DNA of 64,000 nt from Marsupella aquatica (lineage: Eukaryota > Plantae > Marchantiophyta). The position numbers and the translations under genes were made by a program. The stretch's first letter is position 1; each line of letters opens with the position of its first letter. The notes under the pieces were generated by a model, which saw only the letters and a program-made list of their open reading frames with translations, made no database searches and was not told where the DNA came from. Location of the stretch: assembly GCA_973895155.1 (NCBI GenBank), contig OZ316893.1:28220210-28284209 (forward strand). The letters are read 5' to 3'. Positions 9,863 to 62,985 of this stretch are shown here, in pieces.

Positions 9863-12800
9863 TGTGATGCCTAGCCAGGAATTACTCGGCCAGTTAAGTG
9901 GGTAAAGCAGGAATGCACCCTAGAAACACCTTAGTATAGGGACAAAACAAGGAAAATATAAACAATTAGGGGTGACTATGGAACCCGAGCCGAGGCCGGA
10001 GGTAAGGACGCTGGGGGTGAAAACTCGATTAGGGTTAGGGCGCGCTAAGCGTCGGCGGCTAGGAAGGATCAACGGAAGGAAGGACCGGAAGAGGAGAGGG
10101 GTAAGGACCGCTCGCGAGGAATAGTGGCTCATTTGCAAGAACGAATTGGGCAGACGACTACGGGAGGCCAAATGCTGTCAGCTGCTTAGACAAGCACTCG
10201 GGGTGGGAATAGATACCAACGATCGACTCAAGGAGGGTATGAGCAACGTCAATCAAGCAGCACATTTTTGGGGATGCCTGTTCAAACGGGCAACTGAGTA
10301 CATCAAGACTTACGAGGATGAAGAATCAAAAAGGGCAGCTCGAGAACGAAAGGAGCTCGCTCGATTGTGGAAGCTGCAGAAGACGGCTTTTCTAGGAGGC
10401 GAACTCATCAAGGCCGAGTTCTTGTGGACTCCTACTTCCAATCAGCTCAACGATCTTCTGTTTTGCGAAGACAGAATCATCGGCATTCGAGAGGCCATCA
10501 AGAACTGCAATGACATACACTGGGAATTGAAGGGTAGCACGGAAAGGTGGACCCAGGCAACGGTGCTAGGAGAAACCTCCACGGCAGCAGAGATGAAGAG
10601 GAAGGGAGCCGTCAACGATGAAGCTACCCCGACAAAAAGAACGAGGTCGGCGGCACCAAAGAAGCCAGCCGAGCAGCAGAGCAGGAGGCAGGGAGAAGCC
10701 GAAGAGGAGGAGGTCGATCCCATCAATGCCATTCCAACCAGGGATGACACCTGGAAAGGCTGGGCGGCAACCCTACCAGTGGAGGTGCAACTACATTTTG
10801 CACGGGAGGAGGATGCATGCTTTACGGCCATGCAGACCAAGAAGTACCAAGGCTTCATGGCCGGATCCGGCTTAGAGGCCTTTGTAAGACTACCATGGCT
10901 GAAGTCGGAGGTGCCGGATTCAGACCTATTAGAATTCATGGGGTCATGGGAACCCGAGACCAATTGCACGAGGATATATGAGAAGGATTTCTATCTTACT
11001 CCCAAGGTAATTGCCGAAGTGTTTGGCTTGCCGATGGGCAATAAGACCAAGGTTGATACCAGGAAGACCTTGCCTGACAAAGAGTTCCGGTCGTTCCCCG
11101 GGCCATCAACGAAGAATGGCTTCTTCCGGAACACCTACACCAACCCGCACATAGGAGAGATGATCGACTTCTTGCGGGTGACCATGCATTGTAACTTGCC
11201 GAGGGCAGAGATCGGCAAGGCACAGATCTATCTGGCGGAGAGGCCAGACCCAAGTCGGGACTACAACGGGTACCTCCTCAACCAATTGAAGAAGATCTTA
11301 AAGGAGGAGCAGCAGGTAATCGGCATGGGGAGCGTGTCGCGGCTTGGCTATCACATGCCGCTGTTGTGCCGGTATGCCAGAGGTAAGACCTTTGCCCCAG
11401 TACTTCCCCTGCAGGTAAGGGCACCCGAGGAAGCTCCAGCACCAAGGCCGGTAGTAGAGAAGCCTCAACCACCTGTTAGCCCTACGATTGAGCAAGTGTT
11501 TAGGCCAAGGAAGGAAGACTTGCCAATGCAGCAACCAAGCATGCAGAATCTGCTGAAAATGTTGGAGAAGGAAAAGACGGCACCGGCACCGGCTTCGGCA
11601 GCGACACCAATACAGGACACTGCCCCAGAGGTCAACCTAAGCAGACTTAGAAGGGAAAACTCCTTTACCGAAAACAAGGAGAGAATCAGGCCAGAATCCA
11701 AGCCGGGTGTTCGAATGTACGTGGGAGTCTCAAGCTCTGAATCTGAGGCAGAATTGCCTGAAGCTCCTACCGACGAAGAGGAGAGGGAGAAGCCGGAAGT
11801 CCAAGAAGTAGAGGAGGCAGTGGAGGACTGCAGCCATGATAACTCCGGCTATGGGTCGGACCATCACGTTCCAGGAGTAAGGACTTGTGGCCGGTTTATC
11901 CCTTCACTTCCAAGGGTAGTACGAGGGGACCCCAACCAGCAGAGTAGCCCTGAGTCTCCCCCACTAGATGTTGCTCCCCCGAGCTTTGACGACATAAAAC
12001 AGCCGGCACAGGAATTTCAGGAGCGAATCAGGCAGGAAGAGGAGGCAGCCCTGGCTAGGGAAAAGGATTTGCCAGGAGGAGATTGGCCGGAGGACATCAG
12101 GCGGCTAGCCGAAAAAGGAAGCAAACCTCTAGCCATGATTGAAGAGATCCGCAAGACGGCTTGGGAGCAGAGGCCGCGATGGACGATGCCGATCACTTCT
12201 ACTTACTCCACCTACGCTAAGAATAGAGCCATGGAGTATGGTGAGATATGTGGGGAACTTGCACTCGGCATCTTTGGGGAGGAGTTGGAGGTAGGACCCT
12301 TTTTCCATAGGGAGCAGTTGGAGAAGCACCAATTATAAGAAGCGGTGGCTTTAGAGAGAAGCAAGAAGGACGAGGTCATCCGACGGCTTAGGAGGATGGA
12401 AGCCGAGATTGAAGATCTAAGGGCGGCCAAGAAAGCCCAAGATGAACTGCGGATTAAGCGGCATGAGCTAAACATCATGCAGGGGCAGTTGGACACCGCG
12501 CAGGCTGATAATCAGATTATCAAGGATAAACTGACTCAGACCCAGGGAGAATTGGCCGACGCAATCAAAGAGAGGGAGAAGTGGAAGCGAGAGTTGAGGA
12601 ATACAGAGGAGGCCCACATAACAGCCAACAACCGGGCCATGGCGGAGACCCAAAGAAAGGAATGGGCGCTGAAGGGAGAGCTCGAGAAAATCCGCGGAGC
12701 CCTTGAGCAGAAGGAGGCCGAGTTAGGAAAATCCTATCAAGGGATTATTGCGCTACAGCAGGAGCTTGCGTCCCTGTCGGCCAGCTTCAAGGCCGACCTG

Positions 12801-14554
12801 CAGGAGAAGGATGCCCAGCTCGACCAGACTTATGCCAAGATGAATAACATGGAGTCTGAGGTCGTACCAGAGCTCGACAAGGAGCTAAGAGCAACCTAGG
12901 AGGAGTGGGCTACCACCAAGAAAGAATTGGAGGAAGCCCACAGGGAATTGGAGGAAGCCAAAAACAAACTGGAGGAGGCACGTAAGGACCTGGATGAGAC
13001 CCAGGAGGACTTGGAGGAAATCACGAGGAAGATGGAGAACCTACAGCGGCGGGCCGACAACCAAACTGAGCGGCTGAAGAAACAAGCCGCAGTATTTAAA
13101 TGCTTAGCTGCATCAGGTCCATCTCCCGTTGGGGCAAACCAGTTACCAGGGGTGGTAATTGCCGAAGGACCAGCCGTGACAGACGGCCCGGTGCCGGACG
13201 TTGGCGGCAAAGGGAAGGAACCGGCTATGGAGATAGTGAAGAAGAAGAAGCAGAAACCTTCGGGGTCCGGAGGTTATTCGACCCCTCAAGCCGTACTCAA
13301 ACCAGCACCAACCTCCGGCATGAACACGGCAATAGATTCCGCTATCACCAAAGGTGGGGTGGCGCGGCCCAAGCCGAACTACTCAGTAATGAGGCCGGTA
13401 TCCCAGATCCACCTCTTGAGCAGGCCGGGGAGACAGTAGCCGAAGCTGAGGCTGAAGCCGAGGCTGAGGCCATAGCCGAGAATGATTTCCGAGCTGATGC
13501 CAAAGCCGAGGGTGGGCCCAGTCAGGCCGATGAAAAGTTGACTTGGTTAGAGGCAGGTAATCTGTCAGAGGACGGACCAACGGCAGTGGTTGCGGAGGGA
13601 GCGTTGGGGACGTCCATTGAGGATCCACCACCGGTGTCGTGACGGTGCAAGGGCGCCGTTCCTTTTAGGAAGGGCGGACGTGGAGGTAGGAGGCGTGAGT
13701 GGGCAGGGCGGGCGCTGATCTCCAAGTTTAGGATCAGGACCAGGAGCGGCCCTGACACTTAGCTTAGTGGGATTGCGGTTCCACTGGTAGGAGCAACACT
13801 TGTGCTCCTGCCTTGCTGTACATAGGTAGATTCGGGCAGGTAGATTACTGTTAGGTAGATTAGGCTTACGCTGCAAAGAATTAGGCAGATCCACTACCAG
13901 GATAAGTACCTGGGCAGCGGGGAGCTTAGGGCCTCTTCTTTAGCAAGTTTTTAGTTTGCACCAGCCGGGCTGGGATCAAGTAGTAAGAGAAGCTCTCGGT
14001 TAGTCATACCATGACCTTGTGTATATTCATGTTTCCTCATGCCTAAGAGCTGAATAGAGTTGGCCTCACGGCTTAGTTCGCAGAGCTTGTGTATGAGATG
14101 TACTGTTTGTATGGCAAGTGCATGGTGTGACTCAGACAAAAGGAGTCATTTTGCTATTTGTGTGTCGCATTAACTTGTGTGAAGAGTGCCCACATCAACC
14201 AACAGAGGAAGGAAAGTAAGCAGGGGAGTGAGAGTTGGATGTGTCGAGCTGAGAGAGGTCTTAGCGGCTTAACCAAGCCTATTGGGGATCATTCCGGCGG
14301 CGGAATCCAAACATACCTAACCAAAAGGAGAGGAAGACAAGGGAAGGCCTAGATTAGGCCGGCTACGTATCTCATGACCCGATGAAGGATCTGTCCAGTA
14401 TATGTGTGTAAAAGGCTAATAGTAATAGTAGAAGGAGGTTAGCAGTGTCCCATGCCGCTAAGCCGCGGAAACGGCCTCGCCAAGCGCGAAACCCGCGGGA
14501 ATCGGCTTGTGAGGGGGGGTTTCTTGGGTTTAGGGAGCCATGGGACGCACCACA
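9863..14554 (+). mobile_element. Family-A unit, copy A2 (4692 bp): TG...CA-bounded, single ORF, no paired LTRs
   Basis: Ends TGTGATGC...GCACCACA; TSD ATTTC at 9858-9862 and 14555-14559; left and right ends are not direct repeats. Confidence 0.93.
9978..13642 (+). pseudogene. Family-A ORF (~1200 aa): unknown N-domain, accessory core, Pro/acidic linker, coiled coil, basic NLS-like tract
   Basis: ATG at 9978 (MEPEPRPEV) is in frame with ORFs 10146-12338, 12345-12899 and 12927-13439. A late frameshift leads to ...EDPPPVS. Collinear with the A3 ORF. Confidence 0.85.
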
Positions 14555-15537
14555 ATTTCTGAGTCTGCATAGCCGTAAAGCATGCATCCTCCTCCCGTGC
14601 AAAGTATAATTGCACTTCCTCGGGGAGAATCGCCGCCCAGCCTTTCCAGGTGTCATCTCTTGTTGGAATGGCATTGATGGGGTCGACCTCCTCCTCCTCG
14701 GCTTCTCTCTGCCTCCTGCTCTGCTGTTCTGCTGGCTTCTTTGGTGCCGTCGACCTTGTTCTTTTTGCCGGGGTGGCCTCTTTGTTGTTGTTCCCCTTCC
14801 TCTTCATCTCGGCTGCCGTGGATGTCTCTCCTAGCACGGTTGCCTTTGTCCACCCCTCCGTGCTACCCTTCAACTCCCAGTGTATGTCGTTGCAGCGTTT
14901 GATGGCTTCGCGGATGCCGATGACTCTGTCTTTGCAAAACAGCAGGTCGTCTAGCTCGTTGCCAGTAGGCATCCACAGGAATTCAGCCTTGATGAGTTCC
15001 CCTCCTAAGAAGGCAGCTTTCTGCAGCTCCCACAATCGGGTGAGCTCCTGCCATTCTCGAGCTGCTCTCTCTGATTCTTCGTCCTCGTAAGTCCCAATGT
15101 ACTCAGTTGTCCGTTCGAACAGGCATCCCCAAAAATGTGCCGCTTGATTGACGTTGCTCATACCCTTCTCGAGTTGATAGTCGGTATCTGTTCCCACCCT
15201 GAGCGCTTGCCTAAGCAGTTGACAATAGTTGGCCGCCCGTAGTCGCCTGCTCAGTTCGTGCTTGCAAATGAGCCACTATTCCTCGCGAGCGGTCCTTACC
15301 CCTCTCCTCCTCTGGTTCTCCCTCCCGTTGGTTACCCCTAGCCGCCGGCACTTAGCGTGCCCTAACCCTAATCGTGTTCTCTCCCCTGGCATCCTTACTT
15401 CCGGCCTCGGCTCGGGTTCCATAGTCACCCTTAATTGTTTATATTTTCCTTATTTATGTAACTATACTAAGGTGTTTCTAGGGTACACTTCCCTTTTCCC
15501 CTTAAACTAGCCCAGTGATTCCTGGCTAGGCATCACA

Positions 15538-15779: not shown

Positions 15780-16632
15780 TGTCACGTCGTCAGCCTAGGC
15801 CTTAACTTGGGCTTCGGCTTAGACAGGTACATCCTTTGTCAATATGAGGGTTCAGGCAGGGAGGGAGGCACGAAATGCACCTAACTCACATAAACTAGCG
15901 CTAAGTGCGCCTATTGTCATATACGGACACCTCTTAGGTATGGTTTGTGTTCCGCCGCCAGAACGTACCTCAGTCGATAGCAGGATTGACGCCGGCTTAC
16001 GGGCTTCTAAGCCTTCATGTTGTCCGCCTTCGATCCGGATTCGATGGTATGGGTACTCAACCCGGGCTTGCAACCACGTACCCGCAAGCTGCACCCCGTG
16101 CACGACTTGGGTAGTGCGTTCGGCCAAGCGTTGGCACCTATACACAAGATTCACACATACACATACACACAAGCATACAATCTTGATTTACACGAAGGAA
16201 TAATGGGAAAGGATTTTACTACATAGGAGACATATGCGTACACTTAGGTGTTGACCCGAAAGCTCTGGAATGAATGTGACGCCGCTGGTACGGCGGTTAA
16301 TGAGTGATTCAGTGTAACTGCGCTCGGCACGCGCGTTAGGTGGGTCTTAGGCCGCTATTATTAGCATAACAACAGTATTTAGGTAATCATTAGGGGTAGG
16401 ACATCATTAGGCAATAAGGGGGACTTCAGGTTCGGGCTGGCGGCGGGTCGCTATTCGCACATCCGGATTACGAGCATGGAGGGGCCCCTCCCTCGGGTCC
16501 GTATAACGAACTTAAGGAAGCGGCCACTGACGCACGCTGACTCAGACCGGCGGAGTGGCCGGTACACCACAAGCGTGAGCGGTTCAACCTATGGGCGTCG
16601 AGGAGACGTCGGGGATCGACAAGCCCTCAAAG

Positions 16633-16639
16633 TATAAAA
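16633..16639 (+). promoter_or_regulatory. TATA box upstream of the family-B ORF
   Basis: GTATAAAAGG is kept in all four B copies (also 23372-23378 -, 58108-58114 -, 59368-59374 +). It lies ~100 nt before the ATG and is followed by a CT-rich leader. Confidence 0.65.
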
Positions 16640-16740
16640 GGGGAGCCAACCCTTTGTAGTGCACCAGTCCATCAGTCCGCGCGCCAGCTTCGACCCCAGC
16701 TCTCTCGTTCTCTCTAGGTCGCCACTACTATCTCCTCTGA

Positions 16741-19401
16741 ATGTCGCACACGATCCTCTCCAGCTTGGCCATTCGATTCTGGACGCAGTTCCTATCTACC
16801 GGAAGGCACTTGGCCGATTCATTGAAACACGCCAACCCACGCCAATACGAGATCGAACGCGAATACAAGAGAGCCATCCGCCTAGCAGGACGACACCACT
16901 ACGTCCTTAACTTTGACTACCCGTCTCAGAGCGAGCTTTAGCGACCAGCTGAGGTATCTGGGTACTTCTTCAACGGAGACAAATATATCGGGTTCTGGGA
17001 AGCATTGTTTTGGCTTCCGGACGAGGTCTTCAAAATCCCGGGTACAATCAACCTGCAGCGACATCACTTCGACCACATCCCTGCCCAGGTTCGGGCTGTC
17101 ATTAACGGCGAGTCCAGTACCAACCGTTCGACAGGGGCGTCCGCACTCGCTTCGGAGAACTTCTACCAGCACCTGCAGAGCTTCATGGGAACTCGACCAT
17201 CAACCAACGTGACCAACTCAGCCGGACCCGTACCCGTACCCGTACCCGTGCCCATGCAACCCCAGCCTCAACCTCAGCTTCAGCTTCAGCCTCAGCCTCA
17301 GCCGCAGCCTAGCCAAACCCCACCACCTATCACCCAGCCAGCACAGGTACGCTCTGTCATCAACGCTGTGGATCTTAGCGATGACGACGAGGCTACCCCA
17401 CCCTTGACCAGGCGGCCCAGAGGAACAAGCGCTCGGGGGGCCGACACTATATCGTCCCCACCCCCTGCTCTGACCCCAGGAGCGGCCCCAGCAGACAACA
17501 TAGTGACCATGGCCGCCCCGGGCCCGTTACCAACCGCAGTGGCACTCCCTAGGCCCGATTAGGAGGATGGGGAAGTATCACCTTCCCCGAGTCAGTCACG
17601 GGGAAAGAAGAGGAAGGAATCCGCCACTGCATCCGGGTTACCGTTGGCCACGGTAGCCGTAGCCAAGGTGACGATGCATCGCATGGGGGAAAACGTTCAT
17701 AGCAACATCCTCCATCCCAAGCATGCGGTGTGCCTGAAGACTCAGGGATTTGAGCACCTCGCCTCTCTCCCCTGGAACACTTGCAGGTACTACGGGGAGG
17801 ACATGACAGAATTCGTCAAGAATTATGACGACGTACGTCAACAGACTCGGCTGCGGGGAAGGAATATGTCCCTCACAGAGGAACGGCTCAAGATGATCTT
17901 CGGGTTACCCGAAGGTGACCATCGAGTCGAATCACGGGCTCCCAGAGGCAAGGGGGCCAAGTACCAATCTTCAAGTTTTCCCTCAGAGGGATCAGTAGAC
18001 AACGGGTTCGTGATGAGGACCTGCCTCATGCCCGAGATAGCTGAGCGGCTGGAGTTCCAGAGGTACGCTCTCCACATGATGGAACCCCGGGGGGAGATCT
18101 CCGCCGCCCAGGTTATCCAGGTCGAGAACTATCGACCTAGGAAATGGGCGTCGTACTTCGCTAAGAAATTCCATGAAGAGATGGAGCGGCGAAGGAAGAC
18201 GCTATACATTGGCGGGAAGGCGTATTTCGCTAGCCACATCGAAATCATTCTTGAGTGGTACGCCCGGTTTGATCGACGAACCCTTCCCCGCATCAACGTT
18301 ACAAAGCTAGTCCCAGCTAGGTGGGTTTTTCCGGCATTGGAGAGACGGCCCCGACCCGAGGCCCGAAGTCCAGTGGACACGCCAGCTTCACCCACCCCAC
18401 CTCCACAAATAGCTGTAATCGTAACCGAGGAGGCGCCGGAGGGGTCGGTCGTCGCAACCGTTGATGCGACCCAACTAGCCGGGCTAAGTACAGAAGTTGG
18501 TACGGCAGAGGTCTTACCCGAACCCGGGTCTCCCAAGGACCCGCCGGTGGCAATTCCGGAGAACCGGACATCGCTGCAAGAGGACACTCCAGCCCCTTCC
18601 AACGTTATGTCCCCAGGGCTGGACGTCACTGCCCCGGCCCCTGCGCGTGTTGATGTTTGCCCGTGCCCAAATCTGGACAGGCACAACTTGGACCACCCGG
18701 AACTCTTCGTACAGGGTACGTTTCTGAACGGGCTTCTGGGAGATTTCTCTCATCAAATTGCCCGGGATACCGGGGAGTTCATGGCCCGGAAGGTAGCCTG
18801 TTTCTTCAATCAGGAGTTGGTTGCCGCCGTAAAGGCAGGTCGGGCCCAGTCGGAGGCCCTTCAAAGGATAGAGCGGTACCGGGTGGAGTCCGTGTACCTA
18901 AAGAACAAAGTGGCGGCTCAAGAGGCTGAGCTTCTGCAACTACGACCCAAGGTTGCAGCCGCCGATGAGTTGTTAGCAAAGGCGTACGCTCTTACCGCCC
19001 TAGCCGAACAGGCCAAAGCTAGGAACGAGGCCGAGATTACACGACTCCGGAACCAGATTGACAGTTTGAAGAAACAAGCTATCACCTGGCAGAAAGACCT
19101 GGAGGAGGCCGAGGAGCGAGCCCAGCGGGACGCGATGGAGATAGCCACGCTGCAGGCCGAGATGGCGTGGCTCCAAACCGAGGCCGAGAAGCAGGACCAG
19201 CTGGCGGGTAAACTGACGAGCGATGCCCAGCAGCTGGAGGAGGCATGTCAGGAGGCAGCAGAGGAGACGGACGTGGCGAGGCGAGAGAACGAATCTCTGC
19301 TGGACCAGGTCCAGCTCCTCAAAGCGGACAATGACAGGCTTCGAAGGCAGCGGGATGGCCGTTCCCATTCGGGCGGCTCTGGCAAGCGTGCCAGGCATTA
19401 G
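16741..19401 (+). pseudogene. Family-B ORF (886 aa): unknown N-domain, PV/QP repeats, accessory core, coiled coil, C-terminal GKRARH
   Basis: ORFs 16741-16941, 17005-17562 and 17644-19401 are in one frame, split by two TAG stops that are sense codons in B3. Confidence 0.88.
17226..17311 (+). repeat. Coding hexamer repeats (GTACCC)n and (CAGCCT)n
   Basis: Encode PVPVPVP and QPQPQP; the QP tract is shorter in B3 (about 57460-57520). Confidence 0.8.
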
Positions 19402-20702
19402 CGGCGGAGTAGGAATAGATTAGGATTAGGATTGGCTTAGTCAGGCTCTTGGGACAGGCACCTGCCTTAGGTACAGCAGCGCTGCCCTGCTGTCCAGCCT
19501 GCGTAGATTAGGATCTTCTAATAAGACACAGCCGTTTTCCGGCCTGACTGTCAACTTAGTTAGGACCTTAGTCAGCGAATCTTTGGCGAGAGGACACCCC
19601 GTCCCTCGGCTCTTAGTATTTAGTGCACCCCTCGGTAGAGGCAGGGGGGGTTTTTAGTTTCAGAGTCGGACATCCGCGGGACATGCGGGGAGTCCCGACC
19701 TCTGGGAATGACAGAGTACCAAGGGGAGGGGGTAGGACTAAGCTCGCCGGGCGAGTGCGGAGCCGGGCTCCGTTGTAGTGTGCACCCTCGGCCTTGAACC
19801 TGTGCATTCCAGGGCTGTCGTGTCAACTAAGTGTACGCATATGTTCCCTTTGTAGTAAAATCCTTTCCCATCATTTTCCTTCGTGTAAATCGAGATTGTA
19901 TGCATGTGTGCGCATATGTGTGTGGGTTTCTCGTATATGGGTGGCAGCGCCAGGCCGAACGCACTACCCGAGACGTGCATAGGGTGCAGCCTGCGGGTAA
20001 GTGGTTGCGAGCACGGGTTGAGGACCTGTATCATCGAATCCGGATCGAAGGCGGACAGCACGAAGGCTTAGAAGCCCTTAAGCCGGGATCGATCCTGCTA
20101 TCGACTAAGGTACGTTCCGGCGGCGGAACACAAACCATACCTAGGAGGTGTCCGTATTTAGCAGTATGCGCACTTAGCGCTAGTTTACGAGAATAAGGTG
20201 CATTACGTGCTTCCCTTCCTGCCCGAACCCTCAGATTTACGAGGGATGTGCCCGTCTAAGCTGAAGTCTGAGTTAAGGCCGAAGCCTACGACGTGACAAT
20301 GAACAGGTCCGAGGCCGAGGGTGTACACTACAATGGAGCCCGGCTCCGCACTCGCCCAACGAGCTTAGTCCTACACCCTCCCCTTGGTACTCTTTCACTC
20401 CCAGAGGTCGGGACTCCCCGCACATACTGCGGATTCCAACACTGAGACTAAAAATCCCCCCTGCCTCTACCGAGGGGTGCACTAAATACTAAGGGCTGAG
20501 GAACGGAGTGCCCTCGCGCCCAAAGATTCGCTAACTAAGGTCCTAACTAAGTTACCTGTCAGGCCGGAAAATTGCTTGTCTTATTAGAACATCCTAATCT
20601 ACGCAGGTTGTACAGCATGGCAGTGTTGCTTTAACTAGGGTAGGTGCTTGTCCCTATAGCCTAATTTAGCTACTCCTACTCTATTTTAATCGTACTCTGC
20701 CG

Positions 20703-23273: not shown

Positions 23274-23746
23274 TCAAAGGAGATAGCAGGTGACTAAGGA
23301 AAAGCGAGAGAGTCGGGGTCGAAGCTGGCGCATGGACTGAAGAACTGGTGCACTGCAAAGGATCGGCCCCCTTTTATACCCTGAGAGCTCGTCGATCGCC
23401 CGACGCCTCCTCATCACTTATAGGCCGAGCCTTTCACGCTCGCAGTGTACCGGCCCCTTCTCCGGTCCGGGTCAGCTCGTGTCAGTGGCCGCCTCTCGGA
23501 GTTCGTTATACGGACCCGAGGGAGGGGGAAAGGGGGCCCATTACACGCTCGCAACTCGGGCGTGCAAATGGCGACCCGCCGCCAGCCCAAACATGAATTC
23601 CCCTTATTGACTAATGATTTCCTACTCATAATGGCTACCTAAATACTATTGTTATGCTAATAATAATGGCCTAAGATACCCCTAACGCACGTGCTAAGCA
23701 CGATTAGACCGAATCACTCATTATGTGCCATACCAATGGCGTCACA

Positions 23747-40113: not shown

Positions 40114-42033
40114 CGTCAAACACTTGTCAAGGAGCTTAAGCGGCTTTTCTCCCCAAAAGACTACCTAATACCTGCTCCATATCATACCAGGTCACAAAGG
40201 ATTGACAAAACTGCTGAAATGTGCTTACAATGTCTTATCACTCCATACATAAGTAGTTTCAACTCTCCACTTCTAGAGAGGTAGTCCCCTTGACTACTTT
40301 CGTATTCACACCCTTCCCTTCTCCTCTACTCCAAGGATCAGCAAGGGGGATCTTCGCTCCAAGCTGTCACCTTAGAGTAGATTCTCACACAAACACCCAA
40401 GAACCCAAAGTACTTTCCTCTTCAAGCTTAAGTCTCCTCAAGACCCTCAAAGTAGTATTATCCCTCAACCTTGCCCCCTGGCCTTGGTTTGGGTTCACAC
40501 ATCCCCTTTGAGCTCTAGAGAAGGCTCCTCTATCTAAGGACTCTTCCTCTTGTACTTACTTTTTGTTAACACGGTCACACACCAAACAAAGTACTTTCCA
40601 CCCTCAAGCTATAGTCCTCTCTAAGTCTCAAAGTAGTGCTCTACCTTAACCTTGCCTCCTTGGCCTTGATTTTGTACTAGCACATCCCTTTTGAGCTTAG
40701 ACCAGGATTACACCATAGCATGGACTCTTCTCTTGCTCCCATACACTTCAAATGCACTCACACTTAATGGTCACAATGAAGATTGACAAGTCTCCTTTTA
40801 TTGTATCACCTTTACAACAAAAGTTCACTACACATTCTCCACACTAAGCATGGACCACCTCTCCCTTCTCAAGCTTAGCCCTACCTTGGCAAGGTAGAGA
40901 TTCCACTTAAGAGATGAGACTCCCGGTCCCTAACAAATGAAAACTTCCTCTTTATATACTATTCTCCTTCCACACCACACCAAGGTAGCCCACCAAGGAC
41001 CAAGGACCAAAGTAGTCCACCAAGGACCAAAGTAGAGGACCAAGGACCAAGGACCAAGGTAGCCCACCAAAGACCAAAATGGAGAACCAAGGACCAAGGT
41101 CCAATCACCAAAGTCCTCCTAACTACCAATGTCACACTACAACAAAAGTCCAACTAACTACCACTCCCACTCAAGCTCCTTCACCTTGTGATTCCCTGGT
41201 CTATTCAACCATCTCCTAGTCGCCCTTGTGCTTGACTTATTCCTGCCTTGTGGTAGCCTCGTCGAAGCGTTTTTACACTTAGTCAGATTTCGTTATTTTG
41301 GAAAAAATATAATTCCCCGGCCCATATTGTACCCACCGCCAAAAATCACCCATAAGGCCAAAAGGACTTTTGAGTAGATCCATAGATTTTCTGGACATAG
41401 AGCTATGTCTTGGCTTACTAAGATCTAAACAAAACCCTATAACCAATTTTCTAAAATTAGGTAAAGAGGGTTAATTCTTATCTTTTCCAAAATTCTTCTC
41501 AACTTTGAGATGCTCCCAAAAAGTAACCAAAGGTAACCAAGTTCTCCCACAAGTTTCCAGGGATAGAGTGGACCATATTTAACCTAATTTGAAACTTGGA
41601 ACCCCTACCTTTTCCCATCAGCTATTTTTCCCGAGACCCGGTATTTGGTAACTTTAAGTTTTGCCAAAATACTTACAACTCCTAGGTTAAGACCCCACTT
41701 GACTTTGTGACTTATATGTGTGGTCTAGGGACTACCTAGCACCTATAGGGTGAGTCTTAGAAAAAATTATCACTCAAAAGTATCGGTCATGCCTTCTGCC
41801 CGACTTGCCGACTACCATAACTTTTTTCCGCCCTTACCAAATAACTTACTCAACTCTTGATACTTCTTAGAGAAACATGTCCTCTCCCTCAATTTATTTC
41901 CCTACTCTACTTCCTTAGTTATTAAGTTACCCTAAACCCAACTCCGCTAATCACTAAAACTATGTAATTACTACTCCTTGAAAGCAAAAAACTGACGCAT
42001 TTCCTACTCAAGCCTCCATTGAGCCATTCCACA
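40114..42033 (-). repeat. 5' LTR of Gypsy-2 (1920 bp)
   Basis: CGTCAAAC...ATTCCACA; matches 32045-33971 apart from scattered SNPs, repeat copy number and an 11-bp indel near 41570. Confidence 0.96.
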
Positions 42034-51300: not shown

Positions 51301-53035
51301 TGTTGTTGCCGATGCCGATTTCTTTTCTTTCTCCAGTAGTTTCAGCAGACTCTGCATGCCTGGTTGCTGCATCAGCAAGTCCTCCTTCCTGGGCCTAAAC
51401 ACCTGCTCGATTGTAGGGCTAACAGGTGGTTGAGGCTTCTCAGCCAACGGCCTCGGCGTTGGAGCTTCCTCGGGTGCCCTTACCTGCAGGGGAAGTACTG
51501 GGGCAAAAGTCTGACCTCTGGCATACCGGCACAACAGCGGCATGTGATAGCCAAGCCGCGACACGCTCCCCATGCCGATTACCTGCTGCTCCTCCTTTAA
51601 GATCTTCTTCAATTGGTTGAGGAGGTACCCGTTGTAGTCCCGGCTTGGGTCTGGCCTTTCTGCCAGATAGACCTGTGCCTTGCCGATCTCTGCCCTCGGC
51701 AAGTTACAATGCATGGTCACCCGCAAGAAGTCGATCATCTCTCCTATGTGCGGGTTTGTGCAGGTGTTCCGGAAGAAGCCATTCTTCGTTGATGGCCCGG
51801 GGAACGACCGGAACTCCTTGTCAGGCAAGGTCTTCCTGGTATCAACTTTGGTCTTATTGCCTATCGGCAAGCCAAACACTTCGGCAATTACCTTGGGAGT
51901 AAGATAGAAATCCTTCCCATATATTCTCGTGCAATTGGTCTCGGGTTCCCATGACCCCACGAATTCTAATAGGTCTGACTCCGGTACCTCCGGCTTCAGC
52001 CATGGTAATCTTACAAAGGCCTCTAAGCCGGATCCGGCCATGAAGCCTTGGTACTTCTTGGTCTACATGGCCGTAAAGCATGCATCCTCCTCCCGTGCAA
52101 AATGTAGTTGCACCTCCACCGGTAGGGTTGCCGCCCAGCCCTTCCAGGTGTCATCCCTGGTTGGAATGGCCTTGATGGGATCGACCTCCTCCTCTTCGGC
52201 TTCTCCCTGCCTCCTGCTCTGCTGCTCGGCTGGCTTCTTTGGTGCCGCCGACCTCGTTCTTTTTTCCGGGGTGGCTTCATCGTTGACGGCTCCCTTCCTC
52301 TTCATCTCTGCTGCCGTGGAGGTTTCTCCTAGCACCGTTGCCTGGGTCCACCTTTCCGTGCTACCCTTTAATTCCCAGTGTATGTCGTTGCAGTTCTTGA
52401 TGGCCTCTCGGATGCCGACGACGCTGTCTTTGCAAAACAGAAGATCGTCGAGTTGATTGGAGGTAGGCGTCCACAGGAACTCGTCCTTGATGAGTTCGCC
52501 TCCTAAGAAAGCCGTCTTTTGCAGCTCCCACAATCGAGCGAGCTCCTGCCGTTCTCGAGCTGCCCTTTCTGATTCCTCGTCCTCGTAAGTCTTGATGTAC
52601 TCAGTTGCCCGTTCGAGCAGGCATCCCCAGAAATGTGCCGCTTGATTGATGTTGCTCATACCCTCCTTAGGTCGATCGTCGGTATCTACTCTCTCCCCGA
52701 GTGCTTGCCTAAGCAGTTGACAGTAGTTGGCCTCCCGTAGTCGTCTGCCTAGTTCGTGCTCGCAAATGAGCCACCATCTCCTGCAAGCGCTCCTTACCCC
52801 TCTCCTTTGCCGGTCCTTCTTCCCGTTGATCCTTCCTAGCCGCCGACGCTTAACGCGCCCTAACCCTAATCGAGTTTTCACCCTCAGCGTCCTTACCTCC
52901 GGCCTCGGCCCGGGTTCCATGGTTGCCCCTAATGGTTTATATTTTTCTTGTTTTGTCCCTATACTAAGGTGTTCCTAGGGTGCCTTCCTGCTTTACCCAC
53001 TTAACTGGCCGAGTGATTCCTGTCTAGGCATCACA
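48373..53035 (-). mobile_element. Family-A unit, copy A3 (4663 bp); flanks do not form a TSD
   Basis: Ends TGTGGTGC...GCATCACA match A2 in reverse; left flank TCCAT, right flank CCACT. Confidence 0.92.
49285..52920 (-). pseudogene. Family-A ORF in A3 (1211 aa, only two premature stops)
   Basis: ORFs 52063-52920, 50875-52041 and 49285-50709 are in one frame; both stops are TAG where A2 has CAG. Confidence 0.9.
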
Positions 53036-54471
53036 CCACTCACGCCTCCTCCCTCCATGTCTGCCCTCCCTAAAAGGAGCAGCCCTCCACCACCGTCATT
53101 GCAGCGGTGGCTGATCCTCAATGGATGCCCCCAATGGTTCCTCCGCAGCCACTGCCGCAGGCCCGTCCTTTGACAGATTACCTGCCCCAGACTAAGTCAA
53201 CTCTCCCGTGGCATGACCAAGTCCACCCTTGGCTTTGACTTCATCTTTGGCTTTGGCTTCCCCGGCCTGCTCCAGTGGTTGACCCGCCACCATGGCTTCA
53301 TCAATGGTTGTCCCGGCCTCGGCCTTGCCATCCCCGCCTTCTAGGATAGTTGAAACCTCTATTGTGACCTTGCCTGAGGCCGCTGAGGCCGGTGCCATGC
53401 TCTCCTCCTTGGTTATGGTGCCCTGAGAAGCCGCGTTGCTCCCTGACCCGGAAGGTTTTCGCTTCTTCTTCTTCTCTTGTTTGGCAACTGGTCCCTTCCC
53501 CTTGCCAATTATCTTTGACACCCGCGAGGGTGCCGCGGCTTGTCTTTCGGCCAGTACTACCCCTAGCAACCTTGTTGCCACAATTGGAGATTGAACTAGT
53601 GAGGCCAAGCACTTCAACACTGCAGCTTGTTTCTTCAACCGCTCTGTTTGGTTGTCGGCCCGCCGTTGTAAGTTCTCCACCTTCCGCATGCTTTCCTCCA
53701 ATTCCTCCTGCGTCTTGTTCAGATTCCCGTGCGCCTACTCTAGCTCCTTCTGTGCTTCCTCCAATTCCTTTTGTAAGGCAGCCCTCTCCTCCTGGGTTGC
53801 TCTCAGCTCCTTGTCGAGCTCTTGGACAACCTCAAACTCCATCTGGTTCATCTTGGCGTAAGTCTGATCAATCATATTGTCCTTCTTACACAGGCCGGCC
53901 TTGAAGTTGGCCGTAAGGGATGCAAGCTCTTGCTGCAACACACTAATCCCTTGATAGGACTTCCCTAACTTGGCCTCCTTCTACTCAAAGGCTCTACGAA
54001 GACCCTCAAGTTCCCGGCCCCTTCAGTACGCTCTCCTTCCTCTGCGTTTCCGCCATGGCCTGATTGCTGGCTGTCATGTGGGCCTCCTCTGCGTCCTTCA
54101 GCTCCCACTCCCGCTTCCATTTCTCCTTTTCCTTGACCGCGTTGGCCAACTCCCCTTGGTCCGAGTCAGTTTATCCTTGATAATCTGGTTATCAACCTGA
54201 GCTGTATCCACTTGCCCCTGCATGATGTTGAGCTCATGCCTCTTAATCTGCAGCTCATCTTGGGCCTTCTTGGCCGCCTTTAGGTCTTCTGCCTTGGCTT
54301 CCTTCTCCCTAAGCCGACGGATGACCTTGTTCTTCTTCATCCTTTCCAAAGCCACCATTTCCTCCAATCGGCTTTTATCCAACATCTCCCTCTGGATAAA
54401 GGGTCCCTGCTCCAACTCCTCCCCAAAGATGTTGAGCGCAAGTTCTTCACACATCTTCCCATACTCCATGG
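53036..54471 (-). mobile_element. Family-A fragment A4 (diverged; coiled-coil region only)
   Basis: MEYGKMCEELAL..., ENLQRRADNQTERLKKQAAV; starts at CCACT, homologous to A3 at ~49225; homology ends at ~54472. Confidence 0.85.
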
Positions 54472-54476
54472 CAAAT

Positions 54477-57400
54477 TGTCACGTCGTAGGCTTCGGCCTT
54501 AACTCAGACTTCAGCTTAGACGGGCACATCCCTCGTAAATCTGAGGGTTCGGGCAGGAAGGGAAGCACGTAATGCACCTTATTCTCGTAAACTAGCGCTA
54601 AGTGCGCATACTGCTAAATACGGACACCTCCTAGGTATGGTTTGTGTTCCACCGCCGGAATGTACCTTAGTCGATAGCAGGATCGACCCCGGCTTAAGGG
54701 CTTCTAAGCCTTTGTGCTGTCCGCCTTCGATCCGGATTCGATGATACAGGTCCTCAACCCGTGCTCGCAACCACTTACCCGCAGGCTGCACCCTGTGCAC
54801 GTCTCGGGTAGTGCGTTCGGCCCGGTGCTGCCACCCATATACGAGAAACCCACACACATATGCGCACACATGCATACAATCTCGATTTACACGAAGGAAA
54901 AATGATGGGAAAGGATTTTACTACAAAGGGAACATATGCGTACACTTAGTTGACACGACAGCCCTGGAATGCACAGGTTCAAGGCCGAGGGTGCACACTA
55001 CAACGGAGCCCGGCTCTGCACTCTCCCGACGAGCTTAGTCCTACCCCCTCCCCTTGGTACTCTGTCATTCCCAGAGGTCGGGACTCCCCGCATGTCCCGC
55101 GGATGTCCGACTCTGAAACTAAAAACCCCCCCTCCTGCCTCTACCGAGGGGTGCACTAAATACTAAGAGCCGAGGAACGGGGTGTCCTCTCACCGAAGAT
55201 TTGCTGACTAAGGTCCTAACTAAGCTGACAGTCAGGCCGGAAAACGGCTGTGTCTTATTAGAAGATCCTAATTTACGCAGGCTGGACAGCAGGGCAACGC
55301 TGCTGTACCTAAGGCAGGTGCCTGTCCCAAGAGCCTGACTAAGCCAATCCTAATCCTAATCTATTCCTACTCCGCCGCTAATGCCTGGCACGCTTGCCAG
55401 AGCCGCCCGAATGGGAACGGCCATCCCGCTGCCTTCGAAGCCTGTCATTGTCCGCTTTGAGGAGCTGGACCTGGTCCAGCAGAGATTCGTTCTCTCGCCT
55501 CATCGCGTCCGTCTCCTCTGCTGCCTCCTGACATGCCTCCTCCAGCTGTTGGGCGTCGCTCGTCAGTTTACCCGCCAGCTGGTCCTGCTTCTCGGCCTCG
55601 GTTTGGAGCCGCGCCATCTCGGCCTGCAGCGTGGCTATCTCCATCGTGTCCCGCTAGGCTCGCTCCTCGGCCTCCTCCAGGTCTTTCTGCCAGGTGACAG
55701 CTTGTTTCTTCAAATTGTCAATCTGGTTCCGGAGTCGTGTAATCTCGGCCTCGTTCCCAGCTTTGGCCTGTTCGGCTAGGGCGGTAAGAGCGTACACCTT
55801 TGCTAACAACTCATCGGCGGCTGCAACCTTGGGTCGTAGTTGCAGAATCTCAGCCTCTTGAGCCGCCACTTCGTTCTTTAGGTACACGGACTCCACCCGG
55901 TACCGCTCTATCCTCTGAAGGGCCTCCGACTGGGCCCGACCTGCCTTTACGGCGGCAACCAACTCCTGATTGAAGAAATAGGCTACCTTCCGGGCCATGA
56001 ACTCCCCGGTATCCCGGGCAATTTGATGAGAGAAATCTCCCAGAAGCCCGTTCAGAAACGTACCCTGTACGAAGAGTTCCGGGTGGTCCAAGTTGTGCCT
56101 GTCCGAATTTGGGCACAGGCAGACATCAACACGCGCAGGGGCCGGGGCAGTGACGTCCAGCCCTGGGGACATAACGTTGGAAGGGGCTGGAGTGTCCTCC
56201 TGCAGCGATGTCCGGTTCTCCGGAATTGCCACCGGCGGGTCCTTGGGAGACCCGGGTTTGGGTAAGACCTCTGCCGTACCAACTTCTGTACTTAGCCTGG
56301 CTAGTTGGGTCGCATCAACGGTTGCGACGACTGACCCCTCCGGCACCTCCTCGGTTACGATTACAGCTATTTGTGGAGGTGGGGTGGGTGAAGCTGGCGT
56401 GTCCACTGGACTTCAGGCCTCGGGTTGGGGCCGTCTCTCCAATGCCGGAAAAACCCACCTAGCTGGGACCAGCTTTGTAACGTTGATGCGGGGAAGGGTT
56501 CGTCGATCAAACTGGGCGTACCACTCAAGAATGATTTCGATGTGGCTAGTGAAATACGCCTTCCCGCCAATGTACAGCGTCTTCCTTCGCCGCTCCATCT
56601 CTTCATGGAATTTCTTAGCGAAGTACGACGCCCATTTCCTAGGTCGATAGTTCTCGACCTGGATAACCTGGGCGGCGGAGATCTCCCCCCGGGGTTCCGA
56701 GAGCGTACCTCTGGAACTCCAGCCGCTCAGCTATCTCGGGCATGAGGCAGGTCCTCATCACGAACCCGTTGTCTACTGATCCCTCTGAGGGAAAACTTGA
56801 AGATTGGTACTTGGCCCCCTTGCCCCCGAGAGCCCGTGATTCGACTCGATGGTCACCTTCGGGTAACCCGAAGATCATCCTGAGCCGTTCTTCTGTGAGG
56901 GACATATTCCTTCCCCGCAGCCGAGTCTGTTGACGTACGTCATCATAATTCTTGACGAATTTTGTCATGTCCTCCCCGTAGTACCTGCAAGTGTTCCAGG
57001 GGAGAGAGGCGAGGTGCTCAAATCCCTGAGTCTTCAGGTACACCGCATGCTTGGGATGGAGGATGTTGCTGTGAACGTTTTCCCCCATGCGATGCATCGT
57101 CACCTTGGCCACGGCTACCGTGGCCAACGGTAACCCGGATGCAGTGGCGGATTCCTTCCTCTTCTTTCCCCGTGACTGACTCGGGGAAGGTGATACTTCC
57201 CCATCCTCCCGATCGGGCCTGGGGAGTGCCACTGCGGTTGGTAACGGGCCCGGGGCGGCCACGGTCACCATGTTGTCTGCTGCGGCCGCTCCTGGGGTCA
57301 GAGCAGGGGGTGGGGACGATATAGTGTCGGCCCCCCGAGCGCTTGTTCCTCTGGGCCGCCTGGTCAAGGGTGGGGTAGCCTCATCGTCATCGCTAAGATC

Positions 57401-58472
57401 CACAGCGTTGATGACGGAGCGTACCTGTGCTGGCTGGGTGATAGGTGGTGGGTTTTGGCTAGGCTGCGGCTGAGGCTGAGGCTGGGGTTGCATGGGCACG
57501 GGTACGGGTACGGGTACGGGCCCGGCTGAGTTGGTCATGTTGGTTGATGGCCGAGTTCCCATGAAGCTCTGCAGGTGCTGGTAGAAGTTCTCCGAAGCGA
57601 GTGCGGACGCCCTTGTCGAACGGTTGGTACTGGACTCGCCGTTAATGACAGCCCGAACCTGGGCAGGGATGTGGTCGAAGTGATGTCACTGCAGGTCGAT
57701 TGTACCCGGGATATTGAAGACCTCGTCCGGAAGCCGAAGCAATGCTTCCCAGAACCCGATATATTTGTCTCCGTTGAAGAAGTACCCAGATACCTCAGCT
57801 GGTCGGTAAAGCTCGCTCTGAGACGGGTAGTCAAAGTTAAGGACATAGTGGTGTCGTCCTGCTAGGCGGATGGCTCTCTCGTATTCGCGTTCGATCTCGT
57901 ATCGGCGCGGGTTGGCGTGTTTCAATGAATCGGCCAAGTGCCTTCCGGTAGATAGGAACTGCGTCTAGAATCGAATGGCCGAGCTGGAGAGGATCGTGTG
58001 CGACATTCAGAGGAGATAGTAGTGGCGACCTAGAGAGAACGAGAGAGCTGGGGTCGAAGCTGGCGCGCGGACTGATGGACTGGTGCACTACAAAGGGTTG
58101 GCTCCCCTTTTATACTTTGAGGGCTTGTCGATCCCCGACGTCTCCTCGACGCCCATAGGTTGAACCGCTCACGCTTGTGGTGTACCGGCCACTCCGCCGG
58201 TCTGAGTCAGCGTGCATCAGTGGCCGCTTCCTTAAGTTCGTTATACGGACCCGAGGGAGGGGCCCCTCCACGCTCGTAACCCGGGTGTGCGAATAGCGAC
58301 CCGCCGCCAGCCCGAACCTGAAGTCCCCCTTATTGCCTAATGATGTCCTACCCCTAATGATTACCTAAATACTGTCGTTATGCTAATAATAGCAGCCTAA
58401 GACCCATCTAACGCGCGTGCCGAGTGCAGTTAGACTGAATCACTCATTAACCGCCGTACCGGCAGCGTCACA
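54477..58472 (-). mobile_element. Family-B unit, copy B3 (3996 bp), very similar to B2
   Basis: Ends TGTCACGT...GCGTCACA; TSD CAAAT at 54472-54476 and 58473-58477. Confidence 0.94.
55378..58006 (-). pseudogene. Family-B ORF in B3
   Basis: Collinear with the B2 ORF; stops plus a small frameshifting deletion near 56700. Confidence 0.87.
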
Positions 58473-59013: not shown

Positions 59014-62000
59014 TGTGACGCCGCCAGCACGGCAGTTAATGATTGATTTGGCCTAGCCGTGCTTAGCATGCTCATTAGGGGCACCATAGGCCGTAGTTAT
59101 TAGCATAATGACACTAAGTAGGTAGTACTTATGACTAGGGAATCATTAGTTAATAAGGGGCATATACGTTCGGGATGGCGGCGGAGCGCCATTCGTACTC
59201 TCGGGTTACGAGCGTGTAAGGGGACACTTCGGGTCCGTATAGCAAATTCTTGGAGGCGGCTGCTGACACGCTTTGAACCGGACTGCAAGTGGCCAGTACA
59301 CTATGAGCGTGAAAAGCTCGGCCTATAGGAAGGGAGGAGGGGCCAGTTGAACAATGAGCCCTCAAAGTATAAAAGGAGGGCCGCATTACACCCACACTCC
59401 ATTCCGCGCACCAGCTTCGACCTCAGCTACTTTGTCCCTCCTTAGTCGCCCACCGTCACTCCTGGATTTCTGTCACAATATTGTCTAGTTTGGCCCTTCG
59501 ATTTTGGCTACAATTCCTATCCATAGGGAGTCACTTAGCCAAGTCCTTAGCCAAAGTTAACCCACGCCAATACGAGACCAAGCAAGCTTACAAGAGAGCC
59601 ATTTGCTTAGTCGGCCGTAATCACTATAATGGCAACTTCGACCTCCCTTTTCAGAGTGAGCTTTGCCGAGTCGACAAAATCAGCAAGTACTTCTTTGTAG
59701 ACAAGAAGTACGTCGGGTTCCGGGAAGCGCTTCTTTGGCTTCCAGACAAGGTTTACCATCTCCTAGGCATGATAGACTTGCAGCCGCACCACTACGACCA
59801 TATCCTCGCCCAGGTTCAAGCCTCCATAGATATTCGGTTCGGCCCTGCCCGAACAAGCGAGGCTCCTATCTTAACATCACTCAACTTCCCCAGGGATTTC
59901 CTGAATCTAATGGCTCCTCCCCCAGCTGCAACTGGCGCCCACCCATCCGTATCCGTGCCAACACCACCTCGGCCTCAGCCAAGCCGATCTCCACCACTGG
60001 TCGCACCACCTCTCTGAATGCGGTGAACATTAGTTCGAAGACGAGGAGGCCCATCCTCCCCTGAATCGGCGGCCCCGGGGTACAAATCAGCATGCGCCTG
60101 TCAACCTGGCGCCACTCCCACAAGCCCAAGGGGACAACACGGTGACTGTAGCAGCTCCTGCACCGATACTCACGGCGGTAGCGCTACCGCCACCTGATAG
60201 GGAGGATGGGGAATTGTCCCCCTCTACAAATCACCCCGGGAATCAATCCCGGGGAAGGAAGAGGAAAGAACCCGCAGCCGTATCCGGGCTGCCGTTGGCC
60301 ACGGTTGCGGTGGTCAAGCTGACCATGCATCGCATGGGGGAGAATGTTCACAAGAACATCCTCTACCCCAAGCATGCATGCTACCTGAAGACCCAAGGGT
60401 TTGAGCACCTCACCTCTCTCCCTTGGAATGGAAGCAGGTACCCTTGGAATGGAAGCAGGTACTATGGGCAGGATATGACGGAGTTCATTCAAAACTTTGA
60501 TGAGACCCGCCAACAAACCCGAGCGCACGGGAGAGTGATGTGTCTCAATGAGGCACGTTTGAAGATGATTTTTGGCCTACCCGAGGGGATAAACCGGGTA
60601 GAGTCGCGGGCTCTTGGGGGCAAGGGAGCTAAATACTAGTCCTCTAGCTTCCCGACCGAGGGAGCAGTGGACAACGGATTCTTGATGAGGACGTGCCTCA
60701 TCCCGGAGGTAGTAGAACGCCTGGAGTTCCAGCGGTCTGCCTCCACATGATGGAACCGCGGGGTGAAATATCCGCCGCCCAGGTGATACAAGTAGAGAAC
60801 TTTTGGCCTAGGAAGTGGGCGTCCTTCATCAAGAAATTCCATGAGGAGATGGAGCGGAGAAGGAAGACCTTATACCTTGCAAAAAGGCGTACTTCGCAAG
60901 CCACATTGAGATCATCATCGAGTGGTACGCCCATTTTGACTGCTGTAGCCTCCCACGCATCAACAAGCCCGAGCTGACCCCATCAAAGTGGGTGTTCCCA
61001 GCTCAGGAGAGGCAACCGCAGCCTGAGGCCCAAAACCTGATTGTCGCAAGACCTGCTTCCCCGACCCTGCCACCAGCCGCTACCGCCCCGCCAAGCATAC
61101 CCGTGGACGTAGTCATCACGACCTTGGAAGCAATCAACCGGGTCAACGCAATCAAAGTCGGGCTGGCTGAGGCCAGACCCAAACCCGATACTATGGCGGC
61201 CGAGGAGATCCCGCCACCCCCCACGGCTGTGCAAGAGAACCGCTCAGTGGAACCAGCCCCTTTGACCGACTTACCTCAAGGGCTAGATGTTTCCACTCCT
61301 ACTCCCGCGCGGGCTGGAGTCTGCCCGTGCCCGAATCCAGATGGGCATAGTCTGGACCACTCGGAACTCTTTGCGCCGGGCACGTTTTTGAACGGGTTGT
61401 TGGGAGATTTCTCTCAACAAATCGCACAGGATACCAGGGAATACATGGCACAAAAGGTGGCCTACTTCTTCAACCAGGAGTTGGTTGCGACTATAAAGGC
61501 AAGACATGTGCAGGCTGAAATAGCGCAGAGAATAGAGCGATACCGGGTTGAGTCTGCCTACCTGAAGGACGAAGTGGCGGCCCTAGAGACTGAACTCCAA
61601 CGACTGCGACCTCAGGTAACGGCCACAGAGGATCAGGTTGTCGAGGCCAGAGCCCGGGCAGCCTTAGCAGAGCAGGCCGGGCTCGAAAAAGATGCCGAGA
61701 TCGCACGGCTTTGGACCAAGATTGATAGTTTGAAGGGACAAGCCTTCATTTGGCAGAAGGATCTGGAGGAAGCTGACTCTCGGTCTCAACGAGATGCAAC
61801 CGAGATTGACACCCTAAAGATAGAGGTGGCGCGGCTTCAAGGAGAAGCCACAAATCAGGCCCAGTTGGTGGATAAACTGACGAGCAACGTCCAGCAACTG
61901 GAGGAGGCATGCCAGGAGACCGTAGAGGAGATGGATGCGGCAAAGCGAGAGAATGAATCTCTGCTGGATCAGGTCCAACTACTCCAGCAGGATGCCGACA

Positions 62001-62985
62001 GGCTCAGGAGGCAGCGGGATAACCGCTCCCACTTGGGCGGCTCTGGCGAGCATGCCAGGCATTAGTGGCGAAGTAGGATTAAAATAGAGTTAGGAGTAGC
62101 TAAATCAGGCTATAGGGACAAGCGCTTGCCCTAGTTAAAGCGGTGCTGCCATACTGTCCAGCCTGCGTAGATTAGAATCTTTAGGGTTTAGGGTTTAAGA
62201 CAAGCCGTTTTCCGGCCCCGTTTCTGGCCTGATAGCCAGCTTAGTTAGGATCTTAGTTAGTGAATATTTGTGCTTGAGGCCACTCCGGTCCTCAGCCCTT
62301 AGTATTTAGTGCACCCCTCGGTAGAGGAAGGAGGAGTTTTTAGTCTCAGAGTTGGACATCCGCGGTATGTGCGGGGAGTCCCAACCTTTGTGGGTGAAAG
62401 AGTACCAAGGGGAGGGGGTAGGACTAAGCTCGCGGGGCGAGTGCAAAGCCGGGCTCCGTTTTAGTGTACACCCTCGGCCTTGGACCTGTTCATTCAACAA
62501 CTTTTGGGTCAACTAAGTGTATGTGTATGTCCACCTATGTAGTAAACTCCTTCCCCATTATTTCCTTTGTGTAAATCAAGATTGTATGCTTGTGTGTGTG
62601 TATATGTGTGAATCTCGTGTATGGGTGCCAACGCTTGGCCAAACGCACTACCCGAGCCGTGCACGGGGTGCAGCTTGCGGGTAAGTGGTTGCGAGCCCGG
62701 GTTGAGTGCCCGTATCATCGAATCCGGATCGAAGGCGGATAACACAAAGGCTTAGAAGCCCGTAAGCCGGGGTCAATCCTGTGATTGACTAAGGTACGTT
62801 CCGGCGGTGGAACACAAATCATACCTAGGAGGTGTCCGTAAGTAACAATAGTCAGACGCACTTAGCGCTAGTTTACATGAGTTAGGTGCATTTCTTGCGT
62901 CTCTCCCTGCCCGAACCCTCATATTTACGAAGGATGTGCCCGTCTAAGCCGAAGCCTGGGATAAGGCCCAGTTGACGACGTGACA
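59014..62985 (+). mobile_element. Family-B unit, copy B4 (3972 bp)
   Basis: Ends TGTGACGC...ACGTGACA; TSD GATGG / AATGG (one mismatch); the RT reading frame rejoins across it. Confidence 0.92.
59481..62065 (+). pseudogene. Family-B ORF in B4, degenerate
   Basis: Fragments 59481-60017, 60142-60639, 60693-60977 and 60992-62065 align with the B1/B2 proteins; 21-bp tandem duplication at ~60420-60461. Confidence 0.85.

Follow-up and report, generated by a model that had tools for sequence, protein, structure and literature searches.

The 64,000-nucleotide window analysed here, taken from contig OZ316893.1 of the liverwort Marsupella aquatica, is a nest of transposable elements (TEs) in which no host gene is evident. 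Two families of TG..CA units, A and B, occupy 45% of the window and carry one large gene per unit, and they are probably solo long terminal repeats (LTRs) of Gypsy-type elements. The initial annotation had described eight such units; all eight are real, but both ends are present in only six of them (A1, A3, B1, B2, B3 and B4). The precise ends claimed for each family were recovered, TGTGATGC..GCACCACA in family A and TGTGACGC..ACGTGACA in family B, and all six complete units have TG..CA termini. The 5-bp target-site duplications (TSDs) reported for five copies are likewise present, flanking five of the six complete units. Four of them are perfect (ATTTC at A1, ATGAA at B1, GACTG at B4 and CAAAT at B2), which is far above chance expectation, and that of B3 has one mismatch (GATGG/AATGG).

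Most of these units are nested in one another or in other elements. A1 (9863..14554, + strand, 4692 bp) lies complete inside the open reading frame (ORF) of A2, a copy on the − strand whose 5' part (14555..15537, with the 5' end at 15537) sits within a CACTA-like transposase ORF and which continues at 8934..9862; A2 has a 5' end only, because the 3' LTR of the Gypsy element G1 truncates it near 8904-8934. Also within a CACTA-like transposase ORF is B4 (15780..23746, − strand), which is complete and is split by B1 (16275..20298, + strand, 4024 bp), itself complete and located in the B4 trailer. B3 (59014..62985, + strand) is a complete unit within the reverse transcriptase (RT) of the Gypsy element G3. 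Excising B3 or B4 together with one copy of the TSD restores a continuous reading frame in the host element, and these are therefore clean insertions. The complete unit B2 (54477..58472, − strand), 97-98% identical to B1, has a perfect TSD, yet its flanks are unrelated; the TSD joins the pol of G3 to the interior of A4, both truncated exactly there (54472-54477 and 58473-58477), so that a deletion or recombination occurred at this site. A4 itself (53036..54472, − strand) is a 1.4-kb internal fragment with neither end. A3 (48373..53035, − strand, 4663 bp, with a gene at 52659-49285 holding two internal stops) is complete, lacks a TSD and lies between unrelated flanks, as unequal recombination would give, and it is possibly a recombinant between two copies. 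Copies are 60-98% alike overall, and identity along them is patchy (83-97% for A1/A3, 64-91% for B3/B4), which fits recombination among copies.

The absences listed in the initial annotation were also borne out. Direct terminal repeats and long terminal inverted repeats (TIRs) were not detected: self-BLAST of five units was empty at E<0.5 save for one internal 14-mer, and head-versus-trailer scores in four units were within or at the edge of those of shuffled sequences (reached by 4-92 of 100 shuffles). When the two ends are compared as inverted repeats, 6-7 of the 8 terminal bases match, as do 14-16 of the first 30. No motif resembling a primer-binding site (PBS) is next to any unit end, no polypurine tract (PPT) adjoins the units, and Pfam gave no match to gag, RT, integrase or DDE domains within them. 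The layout of terminal-repeat retrotransposons in miniature or large retrotransposon derivatives (TRIM/LARD), with two direct LTRs, a PBS and a PPT inside the unit, was not found, and nowhere in the window does the end of one unit join the start of another. No tRNA was found, and an Rfam search over 13600-20400 gave two sub-threshold chance matches and no ribozyme, leaving a reading of the units as retrozymes without support. What the units do hold is a TATA-like box (at unit position 94 in A and 355-369 in B), the gene, and behind its ORF the trailer of ~0.9 kb that had been noted before. A weak 30-bp motif (E 0.005) is common to the trailers of A and B, at 20115..20143 in B1 and about 14292-14320 in A1 (both + strand). 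It has a short GC stem; at the base of the stem A1 and B1 differ on either side, and B2, B3, B4 and A3 have changes within the stem.

The single ORF had been said to fill two-thirds to three-quarters of each unit. This share is correct, at 66% in B and 72% in A, but the ORF is interrupted in every copy. The A1 gene (10239..13642, + strand, about 1130 codons) is broken by two internal stops and, late in its course, by a change of frame, and the B1 gene (16741..19401, + strand, 886 codons, TATA box at unit position 359), like that of A3, has two internal stops. The proteins of A and B have the same architecture, consisting of an N-terminal helical domain, a 200-aa core and a coiled coil, and their cores are only about 25% alike. 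The helical domain (10239..10580 in A1, + strand) is common to A, B and homologs from Calypogeia; a profile of this domain built without A matches A at 22 bits and does not match G1. The core lies at 10770..11402 in A1 and 17671..18309 in B1 (both + strand). The ratio of nonsynonymous to synonymous substitution rates (dN/dS) was 0.07-0.25 in 12 of 15 region comparisons, and the remaining three, all from the B1/B2 pair, gave 0.36, 1.12 and 1.28. The gene is thus under purifying selection between subfamilies, though broken in every copy in the window.

Searches beyond the window found relatives of this gene and many further copies of the units. A profile of the core, which holds a piece of the G1 ORF, matched 84 homologs among 1.84 billion representatives, and 12 of the 30 homologs that were looked up bear liverwort names (nine Calypogeia fissa and three Riccia sorocarpa). 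One of the homologs, P0102, is an uninterrupted 906-aa protein of B type on a 3.6-kb contig. The A ORF, the B ORF and an alignment, used as queries in word-based searches against long proteins, had no matches, and no locus was confirmed when contigs of metagenomes, viruses and GTDB were scanned. Among Logan contigs, parts of the stretch occur in seven runs, which come from five studies and bear five species labels. Contigs together cover B1 from one end to the other (8164 in X1, 11957 in X2, 352 in X5 and 70 in X6 (26/30 bins)), and contigs that match the A4 stretch without a difference are present in four runs of two studies, one of which may be the source. When depths are summed, the families exceed the contigs identical to the A4 copy of the window by two to three orders, a figure that shows a large family and is not a copy number. 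Among the rows given by two contig layouts, beyond which lay 817 and 406 loose-end rows, there was no flank at the unit ends, nor the continuation expected upstream of A4, so that this blank carries no weight. Families A and B are real and abundant.

Pfam gave only weak coiled-coil matches to the cargo protein, all below cut-off, and a sequence search of the PDB with the core gave no match. The AlphaFold models reached a predicted local distance difference test (pLDDT) score of 93.5 for the B core and 78.6 for A residues 1-388. Since the A and B alignments share most rows, the two models are only partly independent. In each case, VANC21 was the best match in the PDB. With the B core, Foldseek gave a template-modelling (TM) score of 0.53 and a probability of 0.84 (next TM 0.15), and VIA gave Z 7.7 over 198 residues at an rmsd (root-mean-square deviation) of 4.3 (next Z 2.5). 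The A model matched with a probability of 0.72 and with Z 8.9 over 207 residues at an rmsd of 4.1. The VANC21 match spans the whole core domain, and there was no comparable second match. The best named leads in the Atlas were DUF1985 (0.86) and PMD (0.85), both under 0.9. A search of viral structures returned a single unnamed match with poor rmsd, and the N-terminal domain matched generic four-helix bundles only. DUF1985 is the VANC domain (bioRxiv 2024.09.27.615353; PMC5735166), VANC has been reported to resemble PMD proteins in structure (bioRxiv 2024.09.27.615353; PMC13547354), and Gypsy elements encode PMD-A (PMC5418596). The cargo gene is a predicted VANC/PMD-fold accessory gene, which the initial annotation had missed. 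VANC binds short motifs and strips methylation in trans from its own transposon family (PMC5735166). A shared fold shows no function, and an anti-silencing role for the cargo protein, taken on its own, is a tentative proposal to which we give slightly less than an even chance.

The gene also ties the units to Gypsy elements, a link that had been drawn from the integration footprint and is now supported by core homology and by termini. Behind pol, element G1 carries an extra ORF (4301..7435, + strand), and the core of this ORF (about 4429-4981) shares homology with that of A and B. Profiles from which G1 and its 13 relatives were excluded still match this ORF, at 20.7 bits when built from five A/B cores and at 47.7 bits when built from 64 homolog domains plus the five A/B cores, and therefore the link is not circular. 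The B polarity, TGTG..GACA, equals the LTR termini of the Gypsy element G2, as had been pointed out. Behind a stop, the G1 extra ORF continues into a second aspartic-protease-like piece (window 6947-7435; Asp_protease_2, E 0.024, below cut-off), which sits just before the PPT and 3' LTR.

Taken together, these observations suggest that A and B are solo LTRs in which a giant LTR encloses a VANC/PMD-like accessory gene, so that each solo is a promoter-plus-gene cassette; we consider this the probable explanation. TG..CA ends with a 5-bp TSD are the footprint of plant LTR elements, for which a 5-bp TSD is the norm (PMC6317226), and LTRs of 3-5 kb exist (PMC6317226, PMC3485330). Under this explanation, a parent with two LTRs, either bearing gag-pol or non-autonomous, and then perhaps LARD-like, would have been reverse transcribed and then integrated by Gypsy integrase. 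The extra ORF, whose normal place, as in G1, is between pol and the 3' LTR, would have become part of the LTR, for example if the plus-strand priming site shifted upstream, in which case the older core of the LTR would survive as the 0.9-kb trailer. The sense orientation of the gene both in G1 and in the units fits such an absorption. LTRs of 4-5 kb would then recombine readily, leaving solos, each of which would retain the gene with its TATA box and trailer and might act in trans, with the predicted VANC/PMD-fold DNA-binding protein likely shielding the element from silencing. Unless a second copy were at hand, a transcript starting at the TATA box of a single unit could not restore that unit's first 100-400 bp. 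As a single unit could not regenerate its start in this way and has no priming site, short LTR or ribozyme, we infer that a two-copy parent is the simplest route.

Several observations weigh against this explanation. As initially annotated, none of the eight copies has a two-copy parent, and none is present in the window. An interior is found in 0 of 6 complete units and in 3 of 3 Gypsy elements (G1, G2 and G3), a difference with a Fisher p of 0.012 that is post hoc and from counts that are not independent. B1 and B2 are young, being 97-98% alike, and are already single, and outside the core this pair has no selection signal (dN/dS 1.12 and 1.28). In the G1 ORF the N-terminal domain was not detected, and this ORF forms its own long branch outside A and B in a tree. 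This was a quick tree of 58 rows, from which short matches and near-duplicates had been removed, and because its deep branches are unresolved no order of events is claimed. No similarity above shuffles was found between the A/B trailers and the LTRs of G1 or G2, and a canonical poly(A) signal is absent from the trailers of A1, A3, B1 and B2. The fold matches are moderate (E-values of 0.16 and 0.77, and Z of 7.7-8.9, a range that the tool calls common), and neither the cargo protein nor its homologs have a DUF1985 or PMD match in Pfam. Finally, unlike VANC targets, the non-coding DNA of A and B has no short repeated motif clearly above shuffles: the top 5-7-mers of A1 and B1 are within the range of 40 shuffles, and in B3 ACTAAG occurs eight times against a shuffle maximum of seven.

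The missing interiors and the young copies that are already single would be expected if A and B were stand-alone non-autonomous units without any two-LTR stage, carrying only the VANC-like gene and integrated by Gypsy integrase in trans. The identical layout of two families whose cores are about 25% alike also favours this reading, as do the Logan depths, which are not copy numbers, and, as a weak hint, the many Logan homologs on contigs of 3.4-4.5 kb (others are on contigs of 1.3-8.4 kb). Such units would need their ends to be rebuilt from a tandem or circular template or through read-through transcription, but they have no PBS, PPT, short LTR, TIR or Rfam ribozyme by which ends could be primed or regenerated, and no end-to-start junction is present in the window. 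A high solo ratio, moreover, accounts for the counts without new chemistry. At the ratio of 2.6:1 given for Retrosat2 (PMC3485330) the probability of six solos in a row is 0.14, and at 9:1 it is 0.53, so a ratio near 9:1 would make the count of 0/6 unremarkable. We hold a stand-alone origin to be unlikely, if still a serious alternative. A bolder version, to which we give somewhat less credence still, is that the units form an ancient liverwort group of single-unit elements that lack an LTR pair, TIRs and enzymes, are integrated by Gypsy integrase and have as their sole gene a sequence-specific, VANC-like anti-silencing factor; each would be a mobile anti-silencing cassette that may also unlock the helper retrotransposons.

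Other readings do without an LTR origin altogether. The inverted match of 6-7 of the 8 terminal bases is compatible with non-autonomous DNA transposons that carry an accessory gene and are moved by an integrase-like transposase of Ginger2/Tdd type encoded elsewhere, and Tdd elements give 5-bp TSDs (PMC2836005). In Riccia, three gene models have the core behind a DDE_Tnp_4 fragment, and this domain may thus also travel in DNA transposons, in the way that VANC does in VANDAL. Ginger TIRs, however, are 40-270 bp long (PMC2836005), as against 14-16 matching bases among the terminal 30 here, the word 'plants' occurs 0 times in the Ginger paper (PMC2836005), and Pfam found no DDE domain. A transposase in the ORF, which the initial annotation had named as grounds for refutation, has no support from Pfam or from the fold searches of the B core and A residues 1-388, which did not list a DDE fold; such an origin is improbable. 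An origin of the units as an artefact of assembly, or as an ordinary family of host genes, might be suggested by homologs annotated as host proteins in Calypogeia and Riccia. This is highly improbable, and is ruled out by the TSDs and the nesting: the insertions leave restorable empty sites, the copies are 60-98% alike, and an artefact is further opposed by the difference-free A4 contigs from two studies. In the Riccia sorocarpa gene models (P0048, P0058 and P0076), the weak DDE_Tnp_4 match, of Harbinger type, stands directly before the core.

We compared the units with known systems. Solo LTRs of the large-LTR Gypsy elements Retrosat2/RIRE3/RIRE8 and Ogre share TG..CA ends, short inverted termini, a 5-bp TSD, a length of 3-5 kb and an early promoter (PMC3485330, PMC6317226), the U3 of Retrosat2 being given as 1-244 (PMC3485330). 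Their extra ORF lies outside the LTR, as ORF0 upstream of gag-pol, whereas A and B hold a selected gene of 900-1100 codons that makes up 66-72% of the unit. Extra ORFs are also known from non-chromovirus Gypsy elements (PMD, Transposase_28 and Athila ORF1; PMC6317226, PMC5418596, PMC7264820). To these the units are related by the homologous core of the post-pol ORF in G1, by weak Transposase_32 matches in 4 of the 84 homologs and by the Atlas lead to PMD. Those ORFs, however, are placed in the internal region (PMC7264820), and the A/B gene stands in a unit without an interior and has an added N-terminal domain. VANC of the VANDAL Mutator-like elements (MULEs; PDB 9lnj/9lnk; PMC5735166, PMC13547354) resembles the cargo protein in predicted core fold, variable low-complexity linkers, coiled coil and status as a transposon accessory gene. 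The two differ in that identity is 6-12%, with no DUF1985 match in Pfam and no tandem target motif detected for A/B. VANC has been called dicot-specific (PMC13547354), while the host of A/B is a liverwort. The A/B carrier, for its part, differs from a VANDAL MULE in having no transposase and a 5-bp TSD. The TSD of MULEs is about 9 bp.

Functional sequence within LTRs has precedents. The genes sag of mouse mammary tumour virus (MMTV) and nef of human immunodeficiency virus (HIV) lie in U3, and the 5S rRNA-like sequence of Cassandra is, in the same way as the A/B gene would be, duplicated with the LTR and left in solos. These are a short RNA or small retroviral ORFs, as against a plant gene of 2.7-3.4 kb here. 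Ginger2/Tdd elements share the TGT..ACA ends and, in Tdd, the 5-bp TSD (PMC2836005), and differ from A/B, which have no TIR of 40-270 bp and in which no integrase ORF was found. The literature searches showed no element group called 'Cartridge' with a footprint of this kind. Within a literature search that left Repbase, Dfam, REXdb and subscription papers outside, there was no report of plant LTRs holding a whole selected gene and none of a VANC-like gene in liverwort retroelements. A deposited family matching A/B may exist, and the supplements of PMC6317226, which list extra ORFs, may bear on novelty. In one liverwort, the lineages Tat, Phygy and Athila have been listed, in a study where the word 'solo' does not occur (PMC12885004).

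If the solo-LTR explanation is correct, its consequences would extend beyond this locus. LTRs are regarded as sequence that does not code, and the reduction of a retrotransposon to a solo LTR as the means by which a host disarms it. Where the LTR holds a full anti-silencing gene, solo formation would instead keep the counter-defence gene together with its promoter, in very many copies. VANC-type factors, known from dicot DNA transposons, would then extend to the retrotransposons of early land plants, and the long-unexplained extra ORFs of Gypsy elements would gain a testable function. Because the units have no Pfam or pol match, they would be overlooked by TE pipelines or labelled as host genes.

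The window also holds other elements. Three Gypsy elements are present, G1 from the window start to ~8900, G2 at 32045-42033 and G3 from 58473. G2 (32045..42033, − strand) is intact, with 1.9-kb LTRs of TGTG..GACA, a PBS-like motif, a PPT and the TSD GTCCC, and has no extra ORF. Its PBS-like motif (window 40070-40110), the only one beside an LTR in the window, is ~20 bases behind the LTR end and does not adjoin it, and its 5' LTR terminates in CG, not CA. A nearly full-length long interspersed nuclear element (LINE) with few stops lies at 24435-30642 and contains a DUF4283 ORF1, endonuclease, RT and zf-RVT. Further pieces, which had no match in Pfam, we take to be CACTA-like from their motifs. 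In the LTR region of G1 (window 7660-7950), 6-7-mers are repeated above shuffles, with AGCGTC present 14 times, and the VANC-like protein encoded by G1 itself may have this array as its target. Repeated 6-7-mers above shuffles also occur in the G2 LTR (window 40104-42033), where ACCAAGG is present 10 times.

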